A stretch of 64,000 nucleotides of DNA from the NCBI GenBank assembly GCA_022614955.1, contig JAKEHP010000027.1, positions 16,555 through 80,554 of the forward strand. The letters run 5' to 3'. This document shows positions 3,698 through 32,976 of the stretch, one piece after another. Source of the stretch: Candidatus Methylomirabilota bacterium (GTDB taxonomy: Bacteria; Methylomirabilota; Methylomirabilia; Methylomirabilales; JACPAU01). Within the stretch, counting starts at the first letter, position 1. Each line of letters begins with the position of its first letter. The notes under the pieces are model-generated. The model saw only the letters and a list, made by a program, of their open reading frames with translations, was not told where the DNA came from and did no database searches. The position numbers were made by a program, and so were the translations under genes.

Positions 3698-4912
3698 TTA
3701 CCCCCTGACCCCGACCCAGGTGGTCGGCTTGTCAACGCGCCCCGTCTTAGCCGTCTTGACCGTTGTCTCCACCATCTCCACCACGTCCGGAATCGTGACC
3801 TCCCGCCCGCCCAGGCCGCAGATGAAGCCCAGGATCGGAGGCCGCGTGTCGGCCCCGTAGAGGGCGGACCGGATCTCGTTGTAGAGGACGCCGCCGTCGT
3901 TCGGCGAGCCGAAGGAGTAGTCGCGATCCACCACCCCGACCGCCTTGAAGCGCGAGAGGGTCTGGGTGATCTCCTCCGTGGGGAAGGGCCGGAGCCACTT
4001 CAGCCGGACGAAGCCCACCTTCTGCCCCTGCTCCCGGAGCTTCCGGACCGTCACCTTCACCGGCAGCCCCAGCGTCCCCTGGCCGATCAGGACCACCTCC
4101 GCGTCCTCGGTCATGTACTCCTCGAGCCAGGGGTCACCGCCGCGGCCGAAGATCCGCTTGAAGTCGCGGTTGGCCTCCACGATGACGCCCCGGGCTCGCT
4201 TCATCGCCTCGCTGTTCTGCATCCGGATCTCCATCAGCCAGTCCTCATTCACCTGCGGGGCGATGGTGATGGGGTTGTCCGGGTGCAGGCGCTTGTCCCC
4301 CCGGTCATAGGGGGGGAGGAACTCGGTCACCTGCTCCTTGGTGGGGAGCCGGACCAGGTGCTGGGAGTGGGTCAGGAAGGCCCCGTCCATCCCCAGAGCG
4401 CAGGGGAGGAAGACCTTGGGGTTCTCCGCCACCCGGTAGGCCATCAGAGCGGTATCCAGCGCCTCCTGCGCGCCCTCGATCCAGGTGAGCATCCAGCCGA
4501 GGTCCCGGACCGCCAGGGCGTCGTTGTGCTCGCACCCGAAGGCCCCGGGGTCGTCGAGGGCCCGGTTTCCCACCAGGGCGACCATCGGGAGGCGCAGCCC
4601 GGCGGTGACGGCCAGCGCCTCCATGGCGTAGAACCAGCCCACGCCCGAGGAGCCGACGAACACCCGGGCGCCCACGGCTGAGGCGTGCTTCACGATCTCG
4701 AACTGGGAGTGCTCGCTCTCCGCCACGATGTACTCGGCGTCGAGATCGCCGTTGGAGATCATCTTCGCGACCATCTGCATGACGGTGTCGTAGGGCCGGA
4801 TAGGGTAGGCTGTCACCACGTCAATGTCGGCCAGCCGGCAGGCGTGGGCGATGGCCTCACACCCGCTGATGAGCTCCTCCCGCTCCCCGGCCTTCGCAGT
4901 CAGTGCGCTCAC
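3698..4912 (-). CDS. 2-oxoacid:ferredoxin oxidoreductase, alpha subunit
   Basis: GTG start at 4912 preceded by GGAGGG. Reads MSALTAKAGEREELISGCEAIAHACRLADIDVVTAYPIRPYD..., PorA/KorA-like. The longer 602-aa track ORF has a low-complexity upstream extension. Confidence 0.85.
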   Translation of the reverse strand: MSALTAKAGEREELISGCEAIAHACRLADIDVVTAYPIRPYDTVMQMVAKMISNGDLDAEYIVAESEHSQFEIVKHASAVGARVFVGSSGVGWFYAMEALAVTAGLRLPMVALVGNRALDDPGAFGCEHNDALAVRDLGWMLTWIEGAQEALDTALMAYRVAENPKVFLPCALGMDGAFLTHSQHLVRLPTKEQVTEFLPPYDRGDKRLHPDNPITIAPQVNEDWLMEIRMQNSEAMKRARGVIVEANRDFKRIFGRGGDPWLEEYMTEDAEVVLIGQGTLGLPVKVTVRKLREQGQKVGFVRLKWLRPFPTEEITQTLSRFKAVGVVDRDYSFGSPNDGGVLYNEIRSALYGADTRPPILGFICGLGGREVTIPDVVEMVETTVKTAKTGRVDKPTTWVGVRG

Positions 4913-7073: not shown

Positions 7074-7139
7074 GAAAAAAATTCCTCCTCCATTCGGCCG
7101 ATAGATTCATTAAAAGTAAGCAGTTATATCTACCAAATT

Positions 7140-7250
7140 GACTACGGCATGTACCACGTCCCCGAGACCTTCTTTATTGACTGGGAGGGGAGGATCGCCC
7201 ACAAGCACGTGGGGGAGATCCCGGTGGAGACGCTCACCCGCGTGCTCTGA
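7140..7250 (+). pseudogene. C-terminal remnant of a TlpA/ResA-like thioredoxin-fold protein
   Basis: Frame reads DYGMYHVPETFFIDWEGRIAHKHVGEIPVETLTRVL*, the typical C-terminal beta-alpha of redoxins. No N-terminal CxxC part or credible start. Upstream DNA is an AT-rich junction. Confidence 0.5.
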
Positions 7251-7340: not shown

Positions 7341-8093
7341 TCAGAGGGCGCCGGCCATGAGGATCGGCCCGGCCGGGCGGTGGGCGACCGGGATCCGCTC
7401 CCGGGTGACCGCGAGCCCCCGGGCCGTGCTGAGGTCCGGCAGGCCGGTGAGGGTCAGGCGTGCGCTGCCGCGGGCGTCTGGAGAGAAGGCGGCCGCGGGG
7501 ACCATGTCCGTAGCCGTCTTGACCCACAGCCAGTAGGATTCCCCCTCGGCCAGCGGGGGGAGGTTGACCGCGAAGAGGCGCATGCCCCGCTGCTGGTTCC
7601 AAAGGGCCTGCGCCTCGGGGGGGGGGACCGGCTCGGCCCCGACCATCCGGATGATCCGGGTGCAGGGGTCGGTCATGATGGCCATGAGATCCTCGTGCTC
7701 GGCCAGGCGAACGTGGAGCCCCCGGATGAGCGCGGCCTGCTCCCGGACCTGTCCCCGGAGGGTCAGGCCGTAGGTGAGGCCGGCTACCGCTACTAGGGCT
7801 GCGGCTGCCCACGCCGCGGCCAGGCCCCAGGTGGGACGCCGGCGCACCGCGGGGGCTGTTGCCTGCTGGCCGGGGGCGGCCCGAGCCAGGACCCTTTCCC
7901 GGAGGACCGGCGGCGGGACCTTCGCCGCTGCGTCGTAGGCGAGGAGCGAGGCCACCTGCTCGAAGGCGCCCACGCCCGCCGTGCAGGTGGGGCACCCGCG
8001 GGCCAGGTGCTCCTCGAGCGGCTCCCGCTCCTCGGGCGGCAGCGCCCCCACCGCGTACAGGGCATACCGGTCCCGCAGCTCCTCGCAGGTCAT
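7341..8093 (-). CDS. anti-sigma factor (zf-HC2 N-terminus, single TM, RskA-like C-terminal domain)
   Basis: HLARGCPTC (H-x3-C-x2-C) motif and central hydrophobic helix. ATGA overlap with the upstream ECF sigma gene. Confidence 0.75.
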   Translation of the reverse strand: MTCEELRDRYALYAVGALPPEEREPLEEHLARGCPTCTAGVGAFEQVASLLAYDAAAKVPPPVLRERVLARAAPGQQATAPAVRRRPTWGLAAAWAAAALVAVAGLTYGLTLRGQVREQAALIRGLHVRLAEHEDLMAIMTDPCTRIIRMVGAEPVPPPEAQALWNQQRGMRLFAVNLPPLAEGESYWLWVKTATDMVPAAAFSPDARGSARLTLTGLPDLSTARGLAVTRERIPVAHRPAGPILMAGAL

Positions 8094-8665
8094 TCCCGAC
8101 CCTCCCCGAGGACAGGCCTGAGGAGCGCCCGCAGCTTCTCCATCCCGAGCCGCAGGCGTCCCTTTACCGTCCCCACGGGGTTCCCCGTCTGCATCGCGAT
8201 CTCGACGTGGGTGAGGCCCTCGAAATAGGCCAGTGCGATGGCGGTTCGCTGCTCCGGCGGGAGGAGCATGAGCGCCTTCCGGACGGCATCCCGCCGCTCG
8301 CGCTCCTCCAGGTCCCCCCCGGGGCCATCCCCGGGCTCCAGCGCCTCCTCCCCGGTCGACCCCGCCGCCTCATCCCAGCGCCGCCGCCGCCGCCGGTCAA
8401 TCGCCCGGCTCCTGGCGATGGTCAGGAGCCAGGTGCGGGGGGTGCCCCGCCCCGGGGCGTAGAGGGCCGCCTGAGCCCAGGTCTGGGTGAAGACATCCTG
8501 CAGCACCTCCTCGGCGTCCGCGGCGTTCCCGGTTACCCGGGCGGCGAGTCCGAACACCAGGGGGGCGTAGCGGTCGTAGAAGTCCGCGAGGGCACACGAA
8601 TCCCCTTGCGCCATCGCCCGGATCAGGCGCCCGTCGTCCACGCGCTCCGCCCTCGCGGCTCCCAC
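8090..8665 (-). CDS. ECF (group IV) RNA polymerase sigma factor
   Basis: Region 2 (FYDRYAPLVFGLAARVTGN..AEEVLQDVF) and region 4 (LPPEQRTAIALAYFEGLTHVEIA) are recognisable. Confidence 0.9.
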   Translation of the reverse strand: MGAARAERVDDGRLIRAMAQGDSCALADFYDRYAPLVFGLAARVTGNAADAEEVLQDVFTQTWAQAALYAPGRGTPRTWLLTIARSRAIDRRRRRRWDEAAGSTGEEALEPGDGPGGDLEERERRDAVRKALMLLPPEQRTAIALAYFEGLTHVEIAMQTGNPVGTVKGRLRLGMEKLRALLRPVLGEGRE

Positions 8666-9071
8666 CTCTTCACGCCGATATACGAGGCGACCCGCCCGGA
8701 AGGATCAGTCCGCCCCGCTCGCCCGGCGCCCGAGCTTATTCCGGGCGGCAGGGCCGCGTCAATGGGGGGCCCTCCGGGTGATCCGTGCGGTTCCCCGGTC
8801 CGTATTGGACGTCGAGGGGGGCCGTGCGCCGGGGTGCGCCCCCGTTCAGGGCGAGGCCTGAGTCGGTGAAGGGATTCCGCCGAGACCGAACGGATGATTC
8901 AGGGACTTCTGGGGGAAACGTCACAGCCGATTGTCCCGGAATTTGCGGCTTCCCCATCAGCATCCCTGGAACCCAGCGGGGTAGACTCCAGCCTCATGCG
9001 GTGGGACGTCCATCCTCAAAGAAGTCAATGCCATTCTTCGTTGAAATTGCGAAGCGACCTCAGTCATAGCG

Positions 9072-9362
9072 CTACGCAGTCTGGTCTCCCACTGTGATCT
9101 CCTTCGTCCGGATGTCCCCGTGGAGAGCGGCCCGCAGGAGCGGGACGGCGCCGTACCCCTTGACGCGGGGCAGGCGCGGCGCAATGTCCAGGAGCGCCGC
9201 GGCGAGCCAGCGGTGCTTCTGGTCCGAGGTGCGCCAGCGCGTGACCTTGTCGGTTCGCTGGGCGACGGGGGCGTTGATGGACTCGAGGCAGTTGAGGACA
9301 AGTTGGGAGGCGCCGAAAGAGTGACCGGTCGAGACAACGAGACGATGTATATCGGAAGACAC
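9072..9362 (-). mobile_element. possible IS transposase C-terminal fragment (family not assignable by eye)
   Basis: Reads LESINAPVAQRTDKVTRWRTSDQKHRWLAAALLDIAPRLPRVKGYGAVPLLRAAL. This resembles the conserved tail of a transposase family I recall from actinobacterial annotations. The N-terminal catalytic part is absent. Confidence 0.35.
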
Positions 9363-9385
9363 ATGAGGGAGAAGAGAGGGAGCGA

Positions 9386-9880
9386 ATGAAGAGTCCCAGA
9401 GTGTTTCTGCTATGGGGATTGGCCCTCCTCTTGGCCGGGGTGTTCCTTGTCCTTCCGGCGCCTGCTGGCCAGTCCTTGCCGGCGACGCCGCTTCCGCTGC
9501 TTGAGGGAGGCACGCTAAACCTGCAGAGTTTGGAGGGGAGCGTCGTGGTGATCCGCTTCCTGGCTTCGTGGTGACCGCACTGCCAACGGGAGGCTCCCGT
9601 TTTCGAGGAAGTGTACCAGCGGTATAAGGGGAAAGGCGTGGCTTTCGTGGGGATCTTTGTCGGGGATACTGAGGCCAACGCGCGGGCGTTTGTCAGGACT
9701 CACCGCGTCAGCTTTCCGAACGGATATGACTGGAAGTTGGCCGTGGCCAAGCCGCTGGGTTACCGGGCGATGCCCTACACGGTGGTAATCTCAAGGCAGG
9801 GAGAGGTCGCTCACCGGTTTCACGGGCCAGTGTCCAAGGCTGACTTGATCACCGCCATTGAGCGCCTTCTCACAGGTTAG
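9386..9880 (+). CDS. exported TlpA-like thioredoxin/redoxin with in-frame UGA (predicted Sec) in a UxxC motif
   Basis: ORFs 9386..9574 and 9611..9880 share a frame across a single TGA (9572-9574). Read-through gives FLASW-U-PHCQREAPVF, the canonical WCxxC position. Signal peptide at the N-terminus. AGGGAG RBS. Confidence 0.75.
9585..9601 (+). promoter_or_regulatory. candidate bacterial SECIS hairpin
   Basis: Perfect 7-bp stem AACGGGA / UCCCGUU with loop GGC, starting 10 nt after the UGA. Confidence 0.5.
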
Positions 9881-10025
9881 CCGGTCCAGCGCCTCGCTCC
9901 GTGTGTGACCGCCGATCGCCGGCAGAGGAGCAGGCGACCTGGAGAAACTAAAACGTGCATCCCTTTGACCGGTCCGATTGAGCCGAAGCCACCCTTGGGC
10001 TCGTTGGACCAGGGGAGGTGAAGCC

Positions 10026-11402
10026 ATGAGGAGGAAGAGGGAGTTTGTCCTGCTCGTCTTCTTCTCGCTCGTAGCGGTGGTACTCTTACCCGCCCCATTA
10101 GGAGCGCAAGTGGCACAAAAGCCATCGGTCGACTCCCTGGTGGCCGACCTGACCCACCCCGATGGCGCCGTCCGCACGGAGGCCTTGAGCAGGCTGGGAC
10201 AGCTCGGCGATCGATCGGCCATTCCCGCCCTGATCGAGCTCTTGCGGTTTGATCGGGCCCTCGAGCTCAACGTCCCCCCGGTGCTTGAGCGCCTTTCGGG
10301 ACAGAAGTTTGGCGATGATTGGGCGAAGTGGGTGGAGTGGCTCGAGAGGCAGAAGAACCTTCGGCCGAATCCAGGGTTTGTCGCGTGGAAGGGGACCCTG
10401 TTTCAGCTCATCGATCCCGCCTTTGGGGAGTTCTTATACCCGGGCGTGAAACACCGGGTCCGCATCGAGGAGATCGTGTGGGGCGGGGTGATCAAGGACG
10501 GGATTCCGGCTCTCACCAACCCGCGCCACGTCAAGCCGAGCGAGGCCACCTACCTGACCCCCGATGAGCTGGTCCTCGGCCTCTCCATCAAGGGGGACCA
10601 TCGCGCCTATCCATTGAGGATCATGGACTGGCATGAGATGGCCAACGACGTCGTCGGAGGGACTCCCCTGACGATCTCCTACTGAACGCTGTGTGGATCG
10701 GCGATCCACTACGAGACCACCGTGAGTGGTACCACATACGTCTTCGGATCCTCAGGGTTTCTCTTCAGGAGCAACAAGCTCATGTACGATCAGAGCACCA
10801 AGAGCCTCTGGCACAACCTGACCGGGGAACCTGTCGTCGGCCCGCTGGCTGACAGCGGGATCAAGCTGAAGGTCGGGCCGGTCGTGACCACCACCTGGCG
10901 CGACTGGCTCCAGGCTCATCCCGATACCGTGGTGCTGGACATCAACACCGGCTATCTGAGGGACTACACCCCGGGCAGACCCTACGGCCAGTACTTCGCG
11001 AGTCCCGACACCATGTTTCCTTCCTCGCCCCGGAGCGATCGGCTGAAAACAAAAGAGCATGTGTTTGTGCTGAGGCTCGGGGGGAAGGCGAAGGCGTATC
11101 CCCTGGAGGTGCTCGCCAAGGAGCCGGTGGTGAACGACGTCTTGGCGGGGACGAACCTCGTCATCGTCGCTACTGCGGCCACCCGGACCGTCAGGGCCTT
11201 CGAGCGAGGGTCACACCGGTTCCGCCGGGGGCAGGGGGTGATGGAGCTGGTCGACACGGCGACCGGCGAGGTCTGGTCCGTCCAAGAAGAGGCATTAGTA
11301 AACCCCGCCAGCGGGCAGCGGCTCGCTCGGCTCGGTGGTCACCTGGCCTACTGGTTTGGCTGGTTCGCCTTTTATCCGCACACGGAGGTCTATGGGAAGT
11401 GA
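10026..11402 (+). CDS. DUF3179-family protein with N-terminal signal peptide and HEAT-like repeat, and in-frame UGA (predicted Sec) in the family CPLC motif
   Basis: ORFs 9978..10685 and 10722..11402 share a frame across TGA 10683-10685. Read-through gives [19 protein letters not shown] where DUF3179 proteins have (T/S)YCPLC. The rest ([42 protein letters not shown]) matches the family. Confidence 0.7.
10693..10709 (+). promoter_or_regulatory. candidate bacterial SECIS hairpin
   Basis: Perfect 7-bp stem GUGGAUC / GAUCCAC with loop GGC, starting 7 nt after the UGA. Confidence 0.5.
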
Positions 11403-11607
11403 GCGAGACGAGTGGGCCGACGGTCGTTGTGCGGGAGAAAACACCCTCGGCTGAATTTCGACATCATTAGGCATGTTCCCTTCTACTGACGCGGATCTAT
11501 CGTCTTCGACCCCAGCCCATCTCTGCCTTCATTCCTGGCAGGATGCCCAAGGCTAGCCATAGCCACTCACGGCTCGAACTGATTTTTCCCCTATTTGGCC
11601 GAAGATA

Positions 11608-14442
11608 ATGGGCCCCCTCATGAGCTCCCAGAATCGCTTATTAAGGACAGGCCCTCCGGCCGGGGCGCTGGCCCCTTCTGGGGTACCTTGGATTACTCTG
11701 TGGCTCCAACCTTTCGGCGCTCTTTTGGCTTTTGTGCTCGTCTCCCTCTTTACCGCCGTCCAGAGCGAGCTCGGGAACCATATCTCCTCAGGAGAAAGTC
11801 CCTCCTTCGAATGGATCAGAACCCATATAACCGAGCTCCTTTGGTTCGGGTTCGCGTATCTCTTGCTCGCCTCTGGGGTACAGTATCTGGGGATCCAGCT
11901 CCGTCGCCAGGATTATCCCCACGAGATGGCGGCCCTGGCCGGGGTAGAACTCATTGCCGTTGGGATGCTAGTCACGGGTCTTCTCCATCGATGGGATGAG
12001 CTATTACTCTGGGGACACGCCTTGCTTCAAGTTTCCATTCTGCTGCAGGTCTTCGTGACCTTAGGGCGCTCCAGCGTGTCAGAGCAGGATGAATCCATCC
12101 ATATTCTTGACTTGAGGGACAGAAGCCATGTCCTGTTCCTCTCATCTCTCTTCTTCCTCGCAGCAGTCCCAGCTTCCCTCGATCCTTCCTGGCAGCGAAT
12201 GCGGCATTACGTGCAGTTGGAATCCAGCTTTGAGATCATCTTAAGTCACGTGCTCCCTGCGGTGCTGTCTGGCGTAACCGGTCTTTGGTTTGGGATGGGA
12301 ACCTTGGCTCTCTTGGCAAGCTTCAAGGTATTCTGGGTTAGGCTGGGAGGCCAATCGTCGTTTAAGGGAGGTGTCTCGTTTTTGCTCTTCCTTTCGATCT
12401 CCGGGCTTTATGCGGCGATATGTCTCGCATCACTGGCTTATGCAATTGGTTGGGAGCTGAGCACACTCCGCCTCAGAGGCGCCATGCTGCCCCTTTTCAT
12501 TCTTCTTTGCGGGGGTGGAGGTGCCTTGAGTTATGTCGCCTTTCGACGGCTGGCGCCCCATGCACGCCGGGGAAGCGGACAAAGTCTGATCGGAATGACG
12601 GCCCTCTCCATGGGGGCTGTGCTTCTGTTTCCGATCACGTGGCTTCTGACCCGTCAAGGCCGCGGCCGGTGGTCCTGGCGGTTTCTCCTGGCCTCTTCCT
12701 TTTTGGGGAGCCTGTTGTTGGGGTACTACGTCGTTCGTGGTGACCTCTTCAATCCCTGGTTTACGGTGTTTTCCTATTTGAAGGGGGTTATTTTGAAGAT
12801 CACAGCGGTGATAGCAGCGGGAATCCTCGTCTTGATCTTTGAGGAGCTACGGTCAGTGAGCTCAAGGCGCTCCTCAAAGGCACGGAGGCGATGGATTGTT
12901 GTCGCGGCCATTGGCCTTGCTGGGTTTCTTCCCTTCGGGGCCCTCGAACGATACCGGGAAACCAAGGCAGCAATCTTACAGTTCAACGAGCTCAGTATGG
13001 TCGACGCCACTTATGCGAGAGTGCTTTCCGACTTCTTGGGAGTGGGAAGATGGGTTCGCCTGGGGCAGGTTCCGAAGCCCAACAACCATCAAGAACGATG
13101 GCCCCTACCCTGGACCCTGGAAAAGACAGGTCCTTCGCTCCTTCCGAGAGACTTCAATCTCGTGGTGATCGTGGTGGATGCCTTGCGTGGGGATGCCTTC
13201 CACTCTGCCGGGTATCATCGGGATCTCACCCCCTTTTTGGATACGTGGGCCAGGGAGGAAGCCATTTCGTTTCGTCGAGCTTACAGTCAGGGGGGTGGGA
13301 CTTTCGCCGCCTTTCCCTTCCTGGTTGCTGGAAGAAGCCGTCTTACCCTTTACGGGCCCAACCTGCACCACGAGAACCTCTATTTCAAGATCGCTCAGGC
13401 CGAGGGAATCCACCAGGTCATGGTGGTGAAAGAGTTCGGGCCGAGAGCCGTACTCCCCCCTGACTTTCCTGTCATCGAGTTGGGTGGATCAAGAGCTGGC
13501 ACAGATCGACGCTCTGTCCCTGCCGACGAGGTGTTCGGCTGGGCCCAAGGCGTCATTGCTAAACTTCGCAAGGGAGAACGGTTTCTAGCCTTTCTCCATC
13601 TCATGGATGTGCACAATGATCTATGGAAGAAAGCAGATGGGAGAGACTTTGGCGACAACCCGAGGGACCTCTACGACCACAACGTGTCTTATGTGGACAG
13701 AGCCTTTAGCAGGTTCGTGGCCTGGCTCAAACAACAAGGCATTTACCATCGAACCGTCATCTTGCTGACCTCGGACCATGGGGAGCAGTTCTGGGAACAT
13801 GGGGCCAGCCTTCACGGCCATACCCTGTACGAAGAGGAAATCCGAATTCCCCTGATCCTGCTGGCCCATGGCATTCGTGGACGGGTGGAGGACGTTCCGG
13901 TTGTGGCCGCGGATATGGCCCCCACCTTAGTCGAGCTGGCAGGTTACTCGGTCCATCCGCCTTACGACGATCCCCACATGGGGATCTCGCTTGTTCCCCT
14001 GCTGCTCGAAAAGGAACGGGACCGGTATCTCAAGAGGGATATTGTCGGCAGAGCGTCCTTTAAGCCCCGGTACTTCCTGTACCGAAATTGGGAATGGAAG
14101 TTGATCTATTCTGCTGACTTCGATCTGTTACAGCTATTCAATACAGTCAAGGACCCCAGGGAGAGGACGAGCCTGCTGCAGCAACAGCCGGAGCTAGCGG
14201 CTGAACTGGAAAGGGAACTGATCGGATATCTCGAACGCACGGAGCGAAAATCCCACCACCCGCTTCTTTCCAGCACTTCGTCGCAGCGCGACGATTGCCA
14301 TGCTAGGGTCGGAGGGGCAGAAGGTCAGCGGGAAGCGATGGCGGATGGCGGCGTGCGCGCGCTCGTAGCGGAAGGCGAAGGCTGGTGGGATGCAGTCACC
14401 GGAGCCGCGAAGCCCGGTTGCGTGCGCCACCTGTCCCCATGA
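11608..14442 (+). CDS. polytopic membrane protein with C-terminal sulfatase/alkaline-phosphatase-superfamily domain (LtaS/PEA-transferase-like)
   Basis: About 450 aa of TM helices, then VVIVVDALRGDAF...LLTSDHGEQFWEHGASLHGHTLYEEEIRIPL. Markedly lower GC than the flanks. The last ~50 codons are GC-rich and may be read-through into host DNA. Confidence 0.8.
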   Translation: MGPLMSSQNRLLRTGPPAGALAPSGVPWITLWLQPFGALLAFVLVSLFTAVQSELGNHISSGESPSFEWIRTHITELLWFGFAYLLLASGVQYLGIQLRRQDYPHEMAALAGVELIAVGMLVTGLLHRWDELLLWGHALLQVSILLQVFVTLGRSSVSEQDESIHILDLRDRSHVLFLSSLFFLAAVPASLDPSWQRMRHYVQLESSFEIILSHVLPAVLSGVTGLWFGMGTLALLASFKVFWVRLGGQSSFKGGVSFLLFLSISGLYAAICLASLAYAIGWELSTLRLRGAMLPLFILLCGGGGALSYVAFRRLAPHARRGSGQSLIGMTALSMGAVLLFPITWLLTRQGRGRWSWRFLLASSFLGSLLLGYYVVRGDLFNPWFTVFSYLKGVILKITAVIAAGILVLIFEELRSVSSRRSSKARRRWIVVAAIGLAGFLPFGALERYRETKAAILQFNELSMVDATYARVLSDFLGVGRWVRLGQVPKPNNHQERWPLPWTLEKTGPSLLPRDFNLVVIVVDALRGDAFHSAGYHRDLTPFLDTWAREEAISFRRAYSQGGGTFAAFPFLVAGRSRLTLYGPNLHHENLYFKIAQAEGIHQVMVVKEFGPRAVLPPDFPVIELGGSRAGTDRRSVPADEVFGWAQGVIAKLRKGERFLAFLHLMDVHNDLWKKADGRDFGDNPRDLYDHNVSYVDRAFSRFVAWLKQQGIYHRTVILLTSDHGEQFWEHGASLHGHTLYEEEIRIPLILLAHGIRGRVEDVPVVAADMAPTLVELAGYSVHPPYDDPHMGISLVPLLLEKERDRYLKRDIVGRASFKPRYFLYRNWEWKLIYSADFDLLQLFNTVKDPRERTSLLQQQPELAAELERELIGYLERTERKSHHPLLSSTSSQRDDCHARVGGAEGQREAMADGGVRALVAEGEGWWDAVTGAAKPGCVRHLSP

Positions 14443-14649
14443 CCCTACTGACACGCGGAGACGGCCGGCCAGGCGAGCGCGTAGCGCATAAGAGACATAA
14501 AGGCTCTTCTCGGACGCGGCGAGCACGGCCGCGGCCTGCGGTCCTGCCGGAAGGGAGCTGAAGTGGGCCACCATCTGGGTCACTCCCTGATACGAATGAC
14601 TCAGCGAGTTGGCTTGCGGAGGACACCCGACTGTGCTATGTCTTCATGT

Positions 14650-15040
14650 CTAGCGGCGAACCGGAAGTCGCGCCCAGCATTTTCCACATCAAACGGGACA
14701 CAACCTCGGCGACCGCCCAGGCGCTGGATCGAGCCGGCCCCATCCCCCTCCTGGCTGCCGGGGCATCACCTACTCCTGGCTGGGAGACGATCTGGGCGGC
14801 TACCGATCTGGGGGCTACGAGGCCTATTGCCGGACCCCAAGCTTCGCTCGGGGACTGCGCCGGCTGGAAGCCCTGGGCGCCGGGAGCCCCACCGCGATCC
14901 TGTGCGCCGAGCGACTCCCCTGGCGGTGCCATCGCCGGTTCATCGCGAGTGCCCTCCGGCTCCGGGGGTGGGAGGTGGTTCACACCGTCGAACGGGACCG
15001 GACCTGCGCTCCCGCTGGGGGCCAGGAAGGATACGGCTAG
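14650..15040 (+). pseudogene. DUF488-family gene, frameshifted/decayed
   Basis: Frame ending at TAG 15038-15040 reads GITYSWLGDDLGGYRSGGYEAYCRTPSFARGLRRLEALGAGSPTAILCAERLPWRCHRRFIASALRLRGWEVVHTV (DUF488 C-terminal hallmark CAE..PWRCHR). It has no start codon. Upstream DUF488-like pieces (RKSRPAFS, AQALDRAG) lie in other frames. One shift sits at a G-run near 14759-14762. Confidence 0.55.
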
Positions 15041-15126
15041 CCGCGCTTCGAATCCGGCCGCGCCCCCCTTGCATCGAACCCGGAGAAGGCGAGCGGCGCC
15101 GGCGACCTCCCCCGAAGGAGAGACCC

Positions 15127-15639
15127 ATGACCACGCACCTGCCCGGCTGGCCGCTCGCCCTCTTTCGGATCGCCTTCGGGTTCCTTTACCTGGACATGGC
15201 TTTGCAAAAAGCCCCCTGGGTGGTGACCGACGGGCACCGGTTCGGCTGGCTGTACGGGTACATCGAGAAGGAAATCGCCCACCCCACCTTTGGGTGGTAC
15301 AAGGCCCTCCTGACGAACGTCATACTCCCGAACTTCACTTTCTTCGGCACCCTGACATTTCTGACCGAGGTCGCCCTGGGGGTGAGCCTACTCCTGGGCA
15401 TCTTCACTAGGCTCGGCGGCATGGCCGGCTTCCTCTGGCAGGTCAATATCGCGCTCGGGTCCTACAGCCTGCCGGGCGAATGGTTCTGGATCTGGCCCCT
15501 GCTCACCCTCCCGCAGTTCTGCTTCGCCTTCTGCGGGGCCGGGCGGGTCTGGGGGCTCGATGCCTGGCTGGATCCCGCCCTCAGCCGCCGGGCGGAGGGT
15601 GCCCCCGCCTGGGCACGCCTGCTCCGGTACGCCGTCTGA
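15127..15639 (+). CDS. DoxX-family membrane protein
   Basis: 170 aa, 4 TM, LALFRIAFGFLYLDMALQK N-terminus. GAAGGAG RBS. Confidence 0.65.
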   Translation: MTTHLPGWPLALFRIAFGFLYLDMALQKAPWVVTDGHRFGWLYGYIEKEIAHPTFGWYKALLTNVILPNFTFFGTLTFLTEVALGVSLLLGIFTRLGGMAGFLWQVNIALGSYSLPGEWFWIWPLLTLPQFCFAFCGAGRVWGLDAWLDPALSRRAEGAPAWARLLRYAV

Positions 15640-31917: not shown

Positions 31918-32976
31918 TCAGGGGACCACCTGGATCTTCCCCGCCGGCCCCGCCGTCACCTCGCCGATCCGCGCCGCAGCCAGCACCCCTTTGGTGTTGC
32001 TCAAGCGCCGGAGCATCTCCTGACTCTTCGCCTTCCCCACGGCCATGAGGAGGCCCCCCGAGGTCTGGGCGTCGGAGAGGACGAGGCGGACGTCCTCGCC
32101 CATCCCGGGAGCCCATTCCACGTTCCCCTCCAGCGATTTCAGGTTCCGGCGTGTCCCGCCGGGGCAGATCCCCTCGCGGACCAACTTCCAGGCCTCGGGG
32201 AGGACGGGCACAGCCCGAAGCGAGATCGTCGCCCCCACCCGGCTGGCGGCGGCGACCTCGCGCAGATGACCCAGGAGGCCGAACCCGGTGATGTCCGTGC
32301 AGGCGTGAACACCCCCGACCGCCTCCATGACCTCGGCGGCATAGCGGTTCAGCGTGCTCATCGTGGCCACCGCCAAATCCACCGTGGCCGCCTCCACCTT
32401 CTGGCGCTTGATCCCGGTGGTGATGATCCCCATGCCGAGTGGCTTCGTCAGGATGAGATCGTCCCCGACCCGGGCCCCAGCGTTTGTCAAGATCTTTTCG
32501 GGATGCACGACCCCCGTTACCACCAGGCCGTACTTCGGCTCGGGGTCGTCAATGCTGTGCCCGCCGACGATGGACGCCCCTGCCTCCACCACCTTGTCTG
32601 CCCCTCCCTTCATGATGGCCTCCAGGACCGACAGGGGGAGGGTGCCGGTGGGAAAGCCGACCACGTTCAGGGCGAACAGTGGGCGCGCCCCCATGGCGTA
32701 GATGTCGCTCAGGGAGTTGGCCGCCGCCACCGCCCCGCAGGCGTAGGCATCGTCCACGACGGGGGTGATGTAGTCCACCGACTGGACGATGGCCAGCTCG
32801 GGTGTCAGGCGGTACACCGCCGCGTCGTCGGAGGTCTCCGGCCCCACGAGGACGTTCGGATCGGTGATCTTGGGCAGCTGGCCCAGGACCTGGGCCAGGT
32901 CCGACGGACTGATTTTGCAGGCTCACCCCGCCCCGTGGGAGAGACTGGTGAGCCGGACGGGCTCCTCGGTGGGCAT
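31918..32976 (-). CDS. selD: selenide, water dikinase (selenophosphate synthetase) with in-frame UGA (Sec) in the N-terminal glycine-rich loop
   Basis: Track ORF 31918..32847 starts inside the gene. Extending upstream in frame across TGA (32925-32923) to ATG 32976 (AGGAGA RBS) gives MPTEEPVRLTSLSHGAG-U-ACKISPSDLAQVL...GPETSDDAAVYRL, the SelD GxG(C/U)xxK motif. Confidence 0.85.
32886..32902 (-). promoter_or_regulatory. candidate SECIS hairpin in selD
   Basis: 7-bp stem GGACCUG / CAGGUCC with loop GCC, starting 20 nt after the UGA. Confidence 0.4.

Follow-up and report, generated by a model that had tools for sequence, protein, structure and literature searches.

The locus considered here raises the question of whether two exported selenoproteins that are encoded side by side also work together. 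It lies on contig JAKEHP010000027.1 (C218 in our numbering) of GCA_022614955.1, the metagenome-assembled genome (MAG) of a Candidatus Methylomirabilota bacterium, and a stretch of 64,000 nucleotides of this contig was analysed (the window; a window coordinate is the C218 coordinate minus 16554). Gene 1 (9386-9880, + strand) is predicted to encode an exported TlpA/ResA-like thiol:disulfide oxidoreductase and gene 2 (10026-11402, + strand) an exported protein with HEAT repeats and a DUF3179 domain. A preliminary description of this DNA proposed that the two products form a dedicated reductant/substrate pair. Judged from their sequences and those of their relatives, both genes are almost certainly real selenoproteins in which UGA is read as selenocysteine (Sec). 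In at least three lineages TlpA-like genes, and now and then CcdA-like ones, lie near DUF3179 genes more often than expected. The evidence does not support a pair that is dedicated, conserved and co-evolving.

Gene 1 would give a protein of 164 residues with its TGA read through, and the product scores above the Pfam cut-offs for Redoxin (80.9 bits) and AhpC-TSA (75.6 bits). The UGA at 9572-9574 (+ strand) would be read as U63 in the context F-L-A-S-W-U-P-H-C-Q-R-E, and the active site W-U-P-H-C comprises residues 62-66. U63 aligns with the first Cys of the CxxC motif in Cys paralogues, and the frame is open and conserved on both sides of the TGA. Homologues with 65-67% identity and a TGA at the same codon are found on contig C267 of the same MAG and in genomes G003 and G005. 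The N-terminus, MKSPRVFLLWGLALLLAGVFLVLPAPAG, resembles a signal peptide or membrane anchor when judged by eye. Because its matches to the NCBIfam ResA, DsbE(CcmG) and TlpA models all fall below cut-off and no named equivalog is obtained, gene 1 is classed by its sequence as a generic member of the TlpA/ResA-like family. A profile search of the MAG (2.8 Mb) found 17 TlpA-like genes, of which at least 4 are Sec forms. A single in-frame TGA is present in the TlpA/Prx-like genes at C257:4058-4498, C267:4646-5104, C501:~4083-4535 and C207:3218-3646, and the motifs among them are W-U-P-H-C, W-U-P-F-C and C-U-I-N-C. On C207 a CcdA-like gene lies between two TlpA-like genes.

Gene 2 would encode 458 residues. 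A hydrophobic leader is followed by HEAT repeats (Pfam HEAT_PBS, 23.2 bits), and residues 157-453 match Pfam DUF3179 (PF11376) with 280.2 bits over profile positions 1-292 of 292. The UGA at 10683-10685 (+ strand) would be read as U220 in the context L-T-I-S-Y-U-T-L-C-G-S. Full-length Cys homologues are 47-57% identical to gene 2. Across 48 aligned full-length homologues Y219-C220-T221-x-C223 is invariant, the window protein having U at 220, and gene 2 keeps all invariant columns of the alignment with U in place of C220. The eight nearest GTDB relatives (57-71% identity over the best segment; titles mostly Methylomirabilota or Rokubacteria) all have Y-U-T-L-C, and the remaining 72 have [YF]-C-[TP]-L-C with a TGC or TGT codon. 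A metagenome scan for the long form of DUF3179 added 44 Sec loci and 34 Cys loci, and 52 Sec-form long loci are available besides the window. Two relatives with 47-66% identity, L042 (Sec) and L119 (Cys), come from MAG records titled 'uncultured Enterobacteriaceae', a label that looks doubtful. A short DUF3179 paralogue with the motif T-W-U-P-L-C and one TGA is present at C391:1357-2289 of the same MAG and across the order in some 20 genomes (L021-L041). This paralogue has a conserved hairpin of its own, CGGGCAT-CGTGT-ATGTCCG.

Directly downstream of each UGA lies a hairpin of the selenocysteine insertion sequence (SECIS) type. The gene 1 hairpin (9585-9601, + strand; AACGGGA-GGC-TCCCGTT) starts 10 nt past the TGA and its apical GGC loop starts 21 nt from the U of UGA; the gene 2 hairpin (10693-10709, + strand; GTGGATC-GGC-GATCCAC) starts 7 nt past the TGA and its loop 18 nt from the U. 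Paralogues and orthologues of gene 1 (C267, L234, L235, L205) keep its hairpin and the distance from the TGA, with compensatory changes in the stem: AACGGGA/TCCCGTT in the window, AGCGGGA/TCCCGCT in C267, G003 and G005, and GGCAGGA/TCCTGCC in L205. The hairpin of gene 2 is kept in all nine of the Sec orthologues first collected, with 90.5% of cells paired as compared with 31-62% when the partner strand is slid. It includes one compensatory change of an A-U to a G-C pair, with the encoded Ile/His becoming Thr/Leu. As the folding energy of the single sequences is unremarkable (z of -1.2 for gene 1 and -0.9 for gene 2), the case for the hairpins rests on their conservation. The preliminary description had given both genes a signal peptide, a UGA at the first position of a UxxC motif, and a hairpin with a 7-bp stem and a GGC loop. 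The last two features hold: both UGA codons align to Cys within a conserved frame, and direct reading confirms both hairpins, which are conserved in relatives. As to export, both N-termini look like signals when judged by eye, having basic residues and then a hydrophobic run.

The MAG contains the Sec machinery, with tRNA-Sec (76.8 bits) and SelB (376.2 bits) on C333 and SelA (580.5 bits). The selD gene (32029-32955, - strand; C218:48583-49509; TIGR00476, 390.5 bits) is on the same contig about 20 kb downstream of the pair, and SelD is itself probably a selenoprotein since its gene has one in-frame TGA. Each UGA of the pair would be decoded by SelB and tRNA-Sec through the hairpin that starts 7-10 nt downstream. 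Both genes are called selenoproteins because of their family matches, the TGA at an invariant Cys, the conserved hairpins with compensatory changes, the Sec machinery, and the listing of both families as selenoproteins in the literature. Standard gene calling splits both genes at the UGA, and the annotation should be corrected so that each is continuous across it.

The spacer between the genes (9881-10025, + strand) carries a GGGGAGG ribosome-binding site ahead of the ATG at 10026, and a search of it turned up neither a terminator-like nor a promoter-like site. The genes are adjacent and co-directional, as had been described, with a gap of 145 nt rather than 146 (the ATG is at 10026, not 10027), and they are probably co-transcribed.

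TlpA-like genes near other DUF3179 genes were identified with a profile built by jackhmmer on the MAG and the fetched loci, and six-frame translations were searched with TGA read through. Other neighbour families were defined with a crude gene caller filtered by third-codon-position G+C (GC3) and coverage-filtered BLAST clustering; single-linkage clustering of all six-frame open reading frames (ORFs) collapsed into low-complexity, high-GC mega-clusters and was rejected. A TlpA-like gene is present at 13 of 53 Sec-form long loci, including the window, and at 9 of 106 Cys-form long loci (available flanks of up to 3-4 kb, either side and strand), and since many contigs are short these counts are lower bounds. 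The background expectation, from 17 genes in 2.8 Mb, is roughly 4-5% per 7-kb window. At 8 of the 13 positive Sec-form loci the redoxin is immediately adjacent on the same strand. The redoxins of the Cys-form loci are mainly of the WCPPC type directly upstream, which occurs at 6 loci (one metagenome contig and five genome records labelled Geminicoccaceae, Geminicoccales or Pseudomonadota), with some of the [CU]INC type 1-2.5 kb away. The Sec/Cys state always agrees for redoxins directly beside a long-form DUF3179 gene, an agreement that is confounded by lineage, and the sole mismatch among the long-form loci is L185, where a Cys-DUF3179 gene has a GUINC redoxin 2.4 kb away. At the short-form loci a redoxin neighbour was seen in 1 of 21.

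An independent sample was provided by 201 genomes of the class holding locus L115 (a record titled Dehalococcoidaceae, Chloroflexota). PF11376 genes are present in 80 of them, and about one in four of the matches listed contains one TGA. TlpA-like profile matches occur at 12 of 30 Cys-form loci (within 1.5 kb on either side) and at 11 of 33 Sec-form loci (within 3 kb), as compared with 1 of 40 control windows of 7 kb placed at a distance of 100 kb along the same contigs (Fisher one-sided p = 8e-5 for Cys and 4e-4 for Sec, with shared ancestry ignored). The excess of TlpA-like genes near DUF3179 in this class is clear. At three of these loci (L296, L298 and L300) a tight co-directional operon encodes a TlpA-like lipoprotein (W-C-P-T-C), a CcdA/DsbD_TM-like protein and a Sec-DUF3179 lipoprotein (Y-U-P-L-C-G); the CcdA/DsbD_TM-like protein of L300 matches PF02683 at exactly the 27.1-bit cut-off. 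Given the enrichment of TlpA-like genes near DUF3179 and this three-gene operon, a loose client/reductant relation between the two families is plausible. The preliminary description had asked how far the TlpA-DUF3179 neighbourhood is conserved, and the answer is divided: enrichment over the control holds at the level of families, and the orthologous pair is not kept adjacent. Because DUF3179 genes tend to lie near thioredoxin-fold genes elsewhere, the complete lack of conserved synteny with redoxins that had been named as counting against a link was not what we found.

The DNA around the pair shows how the two genes may have come together. On the native flank, an RskA-type anti-sigma factor gene (7341-8093, - strand) and an extracytoplasmic function (ECF) sigma factor gene (8090-8665, - strand), both identified with Pfam, make up the last block (7341-8665) that is syntenic with same-genus genomes. 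Synteny with G005:C44 and G002:C196 spans the tail remnant described below, the anti-sigma gene and the ECF sigma gene and ends at about 8805-8851, and no match to same-genus genomes was found past ~8850. A strain-specific segment of lower GC content follows (8850-14450), which holds a transposase remnant, both selenoprotein genes and a gene for a sulfatase-family membrane protein (11608-14442; Pfam match). The GC content is 0.63-0.70 upstream of 7.2 kb, 0.70-0.75 over the sigma/anti-sigma genes (7.2-9.0 kb), 0.61-0.65 over the gene pair (8.8-11.4 kb), 0.55-0.57 over the sulfatase-family gene (11.6-14.2 kb) and 0.68-0.70 after 14.4 kb. The remnant at 9072-9362 (- strand) consists of 96 C-terminal codons of an IS256/Mutator transposase and shares 57% amino acid and 76% nucleotide identity with the 3' end of the full-length gene on C405, which matches Pfam Transposase_mut with 114 bits. 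At 7137-7250 (+ strand) there is an orphan C-terminal tail of a TlpA/CcmG-like gene (TlpA profile positions 122-156), of which 7137-7241 repeats the final 34 codons of a CcmG-like gene (C341:4232-4337; 82% amino acid and 90% nucleotide identity). At the syntenic place in G005 (C44:11282-11761) an intact TGA-containing TlpA-like gene lies convergent with the anti-sigma gene. In the window the 34-codon tail is fused to an AT-rich GntR promoter region.

In a tree of the redoxins, gene 1 is sister to the C267 gene of the same MAG (Shimodaira-Hasegawa-like approximate likelihood ratio test, SH-aLRT, 100; 65% identity), which adjoins no DUF3179 gene. The G003 and G005 redoxins are orthologues of C267 (80-84% nucleotide synteny) and not of gene 1. 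The synteny break, the GC shift, the gene remnants and the sister placement of C267 together place the pair in a strain-specific mosaic segment that was rearranged recently and is marked by the IS256 remnant, and make gene 1 a recent, strain-specific extra copy of the resident Sec-redoxin. The preliminary description had suspected degraded DNA beside the pair and an acquired or rearranged module, and both suspicions are borne out by the two remnants, the break at ~8.85 kb, the lower GC content and the absence of the region from same-genus genomes. An empty site for the island was sought in same-genus genomes and no clean one could be shown, the far side of the break in G002 and G005 mapping to C341 of the MAG studied here or nowhere in that MAG. 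Just past the synteny breakpoint in G002:C196 (L233, 3150-3390) there is an element of 100-180 bp, a dispersed short repeat that matches six contigs of the MAG studied here (C499, C440, C436, C135, C65 and C364) at 85-91% identity. Downstream of the island the window has a DoxD/DoxX-like gene (14563-15639).

In bacterial envelopes, a membrane protein of the CcdA/DsbD type hands electrons to an exported TlpA-like reductase, and the latter maintains a particular CxxC client in the reduced state; TlpA serves ScoI and CoxB, and ResA and CcmG serve apocytochrome c. By family membership, gene 1 encodes a putatively exported TlpA/ResA-type reductase with a thioredoxin fold and selenocysteine as the attacking residue, and gene 2 a putatively exported HEAT and DUF3179 protein with Sec first in the invariant C-x-x-C. 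In parallel with the known pathways, the TlpA-like protein would be fed with electrons by a membrane protein of the CcdA/DsbD type whose gene lies elsewhere in the genome; no CcdA gene was found beside the window pair, and CcdA-like genes are present on C207 and C306 of the MAG. It would then keep U220/C223 of the DUF3179 protein reduced in the oxidising periplasm, letting DUF3179 do its job. The link would be loose and at the level of families, with DUF3179 genes recruiting whichever local TlpA-like gene is at hand, and the juxtaposition in the window would be recent, the product of a strain-specific mosaic segment and a duplicated resident Sec-redoxin. As a whole, real selenoproteins together with a loose reductant/client link make up the best explanation that we can offer; our confidence in it stays a little short of even because it is set by the weaker, inferred part. 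That the two window proteins exchange electrons in vivo is a tentative proposition, to which we would give slightly less than an even chance.

Several observations weigh against a functional link. About 60-75% of the DUF3179 loci have no redoxin in the flanks examined, and where one is present it may lie on the other strand or at a distance of 1-3 kb. In the tree these redoxins are polyphyletic, falling into at least five clades. One is a tight group of W-U-P-Y-C Prx-like proteins at 10 loci, on either side and either strand and 0.1-2.6 kb from DUF3179, of which the profile search found no member in the MAG; the other clades are the WCPPC type, the [CU]INC type, L048 (W-U-P-H-C), and gene 1 with C267. 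Same-genus genomes have only the C267 orthologue, without a long DUF3179 gene and without the pair, and G005, which is 96% complete, has no long DUF3179 gene. In Chloroflexota the 23 positive loci represent about 11 different arrangements, and the Fisher p-values accordingly overstate the independence of the evidence, and adjacent genes there differ in state, with Sec-DUF3179 beside a Cys redoxin in L296-L300 and the reverse in L288. Sec next to Sec is also less remarkable than it may seem because Methylomirabilota are reported to be extremely rich in selenoproteins (a 2026 review mentions a Methylomirabilota MAG predicted to have 63 selenoprotein genes) and about half of the TlpA-like matches listed for 60 related genomes contain one TGA. 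Finally, other neighbours of the Sec form (DUF302, a Sec AhpD-like protein and ECF sigma factors) are as frequent as redoxins, and at some loci the true redox couple may be a Prx-like and an AhpD-like protein. The word 'dedicated' in the preliminary description must accordingly be given up, in view of the C267 paralogue without DUF3179, the 13 of 53 loci, the five or more clades and the absence from same-genus genomes; nor does the Cys/Sec state of the two genes co-vary strictly, as the mismatches at L296-L300 and L288 demonstrate.

In a different account the adjacency is coincidental: two independent periplasmic selenoproteins would have been joined in a mosaic associated with an insertion sequence (IS), and the redoxin would have other clients or act as a general reductant or peroxidase. 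This is a serious possibility, to which we give a substantial minority share of our belief. It would account for the absence of the pair from same-genus genomes and the break at ~8.85 kb, for the lower GC segment with its IS256 remnant, and for a window redoxin that duplicates C267, itself without a DUF3179 neighbour; the short Sec-DUF3179 gene on C391 has no redoxin neighbour either, and the genome has 17 TlpA-like genes, including at least 4 with Sec. It does not explain why, in several lineages, DUF3179 loci have TlpA-like neighbours more often than control windows do, why TlpA, CcdA and DUF3179 form an operon in Chloroflexota, or why the window genes are co-directional, 145 nt apart and without a terminator between them.

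A further account starts from the other neighbours of DUF3179, which are lineage-specific; a universal conserved neighbour was sought and none was found among the loci. DUF302 (Pfam, ~78 bits) occurs at 9 loci (L044, L045, L049, L132, L136, L144, L146, L157 and L162), always immediately adjacent to and co-directional with a Sec long DUF3179 gene, the gap ranging from -48 to +94 nt. Among the partners seen, DUF302 looks most like part of an operon with DUF3179, yet the window lacks it. A Sec AhpD-like/CMD gene with an in-frame TGA (C-T-Y-U, a CxxU motif) occurs at 7 loci (L045:6660-7466, L139:4367-5218 and five others), where it clusters with Sec-DUF3179 and the W-U-P-Y-C Prx-like selenoprotein; DUF302, Prx-like and AhpD-like genes are found at Sec-form long loci of mostly Methylomirabilota-like origin. 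ECF sigma factors lie near the Sec long form at 5 loci, inorganic pyrophosphatase at 4 and a cluster with an MbnB/DUF692-type gene at 3; at L130 (4438-6370) the MbnB/TglH/ChrH-type (DUF692) gene, with 364.7 bits, is directly downstream of Sec-DUF3179. The gene that recurs after it we take to be DUF2063-like, and the set of DUF692, DUF2063-like and the DoxD/DoxX-like gene of the window presumably resembles copper-related operons for ribosomally synthesised and post-translationally modified peptides (RiPPs), the 'bufferin' operons. Near the Cys form, mostly in records labelled Alphaproteobacteria, there are genes for phosphoenolpyruvate (PEP) carboxykinase, a CobW-like GTPase and a CobU-like kinase (the kinase read from sequence). 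By motif reading, the CobW/COG0523-like GTPase (GSGKT...CICC) is found 0.7-1.3 kb upstream on the opposite strand at L052 and 15 other Cys-form loci. One Chloroflexota lineage has a CoA-transferase and a hydrolase. Of the 21 short-form loci 6 have a divergent ECF sigma factor upstream, and several have DedA-like and MerA-like genes nearby as read from sequence. Among the Sec-DUF3179 loci, a MerA-like pyridine-nucleotide-disulfide oxidoreductase is confirmed by Pfam at L044 only.

The invariant residues of DUF3179 are also of interest in this respect. D201, H203, E204, N207 and D208 lie upstream of C220-x-x-C223 (D201, H203 and E204 are 16-19 residues ahead of it), and a G-S-S-G...S-N-K-L-M-x-D block follows it, a pattern that would suit a catalytic site as well as a metal site. 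A full-length AlphaFold2 model of DUF3179 reached a predicted local distance difference test (pLDDT) score of 93.3 and a predicted template modelling (pTM) score of 0.87; a Foldseek search of the PDB with it gave no neighbour with E < 0.02, and a profile search of PDB sequences with gene 2 found the HEAT repeats only, with no match for the DUF3179 part. A Rieske-like metal site had been suggested by the D-x-H...17...C-x-x-C spacing and by weak local Foldseek matches to Rieske ferredoxins (E of 0.2-0.45), and found no support when hhalign against a 29-sequence Rieske alignment gave a probability of 2% with another region aligned. A model of the sub-domain at residues 170-275 had a mean pLDDT of 54 and was unusable.

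The redoxin and the DUF3179 protein could instead be pictured as parallel effectors of an envelope response to metal or thiol stress, the U/CxxC of DUF3179 being a metal-binding or independent catalytic site. The ECF sigma factors (5 long-form and 6 of 21 short-form loci), DUF302, the MerA-like (Pfam at L044 only) and DedA-like neighbours read from sequence, the MbnB/DUF692-type gene of L130 (Pfam), the CobW/COG0523-like GTPase of Cys-form loci (motif reading) and the invariant D201, H203 and E204 ahead of C220-x-x-C223 are all in keeping with it. We consider it improbable, as neither the fold search (nothing with E < 0.02) nor the Rieske comparison (2%) links DUF3179 to a metal family and the neighbour families are specific to lineages. 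Since TlpA is known to reduce metal-binding CxxC proteins such as ScoI, it would in any case be compatible with a TlpA-dependent reduction step. That one or both TGA codons are true stops, leaving split genes, pseudogenes or an assembly error, would fit the split ORFs of standard gene calling, the degraded genes nearby and a fragmented MAG (624 contigs, 8.3% estimated contamination) and is nevertheless very unlikely, given the same TGA codon at 52 long-form and ~21 short-form loci and in many TlpA-like genes, the conserved sequence on both sides of each TGA with family-invariant residues kept, the conserved hairpins and a full Sec machinery with selD on the same contig.

A loose, family-level reductant/client link would have consequences beyond this locus. 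It provides a functional lead for PF11376, a large family (thousands of homologues): the TlpA-like neighbourhood points to a reduced dithiol or selenol-thiol as the active state of DUF3179 and names its likely reductant. In its most general form the idea would make DUF3179 a widespread client or terminal effector, so far overlooked, of the extracytoplasmic reducing pathway from CcdA to TlpA. In Sec-rich lineages such as Methylomirabilota both steps would have been upgraded to Sec, giving a periplasmic selenol relay from U-x-x-C to U-x-x-C. This relay might be tied to metal or oxidative stress of the envelope through the genes that cluster with DUF3179, namely those for ECF sigma factors, DUF302 and the selenoproteins of the AhpD-like and Prx-like types. 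This general form strikes us as rather unlikely.

How does the pair compare with known systems? DUF3179 (PF11376, UxxC/T) is tabulated as a selenoprotein family in PMC9312934 and PMC13188914, where it is credited to Zhang & Gladyshev 2007 and the Olavius symbiont metagenome. Also tabulated there as selenoproteins are Prx-like thiol:disulfide oxidoreductases (PF00578, UxxC), proteins of thiol:disulfide interchange (PF13098 among the listed families) and Redoxin-family proteins (PF08534, UxxC). Because both families are listed in these reviews, neither gene represents a new kind of selenoprotein, and both are further members of catalogued families. Gene 2 shares with the catalogued Sec-DUF3179 proteins the Pfam family, Sec at the first position of CxxC and a SECIS hairpin directly downstream. 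It differs in being a long form, whose Sec version occurs mainly in Methylomirabilota- and Rokubacteria-like genomes and which adds HEAT repeats and, by eye, a signal peptide at the N-terminus, and in having the shorter T-W-U-P-L-C paralogue beside the long form in its own genome (C391). Gene 1 resembles the Prx-like and Redoxin selenoproteins (PF00578, PF08534, PF13098) in its thioredoxin fold, UxxC motif and SECIS hairpin 10 nt past the UGA, and judged by eye it may be exported as they are; unlike them it has no named NCBIfam equivalog and is a strain-specific duplicate of C267. When the pair is set beside the TlpA-ScoI/CoxB and ResA(CcmG)-CcdA pathways, the differences are that the putative client is DUF3179, that both partners in the window have Sec, and that no CcdA gene was found beside the window pair. 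The likeness lies in the gene order itself, as TlpA-like, CcdA-like and DUF3179 genes form one operon at three Chloroflexota loci.

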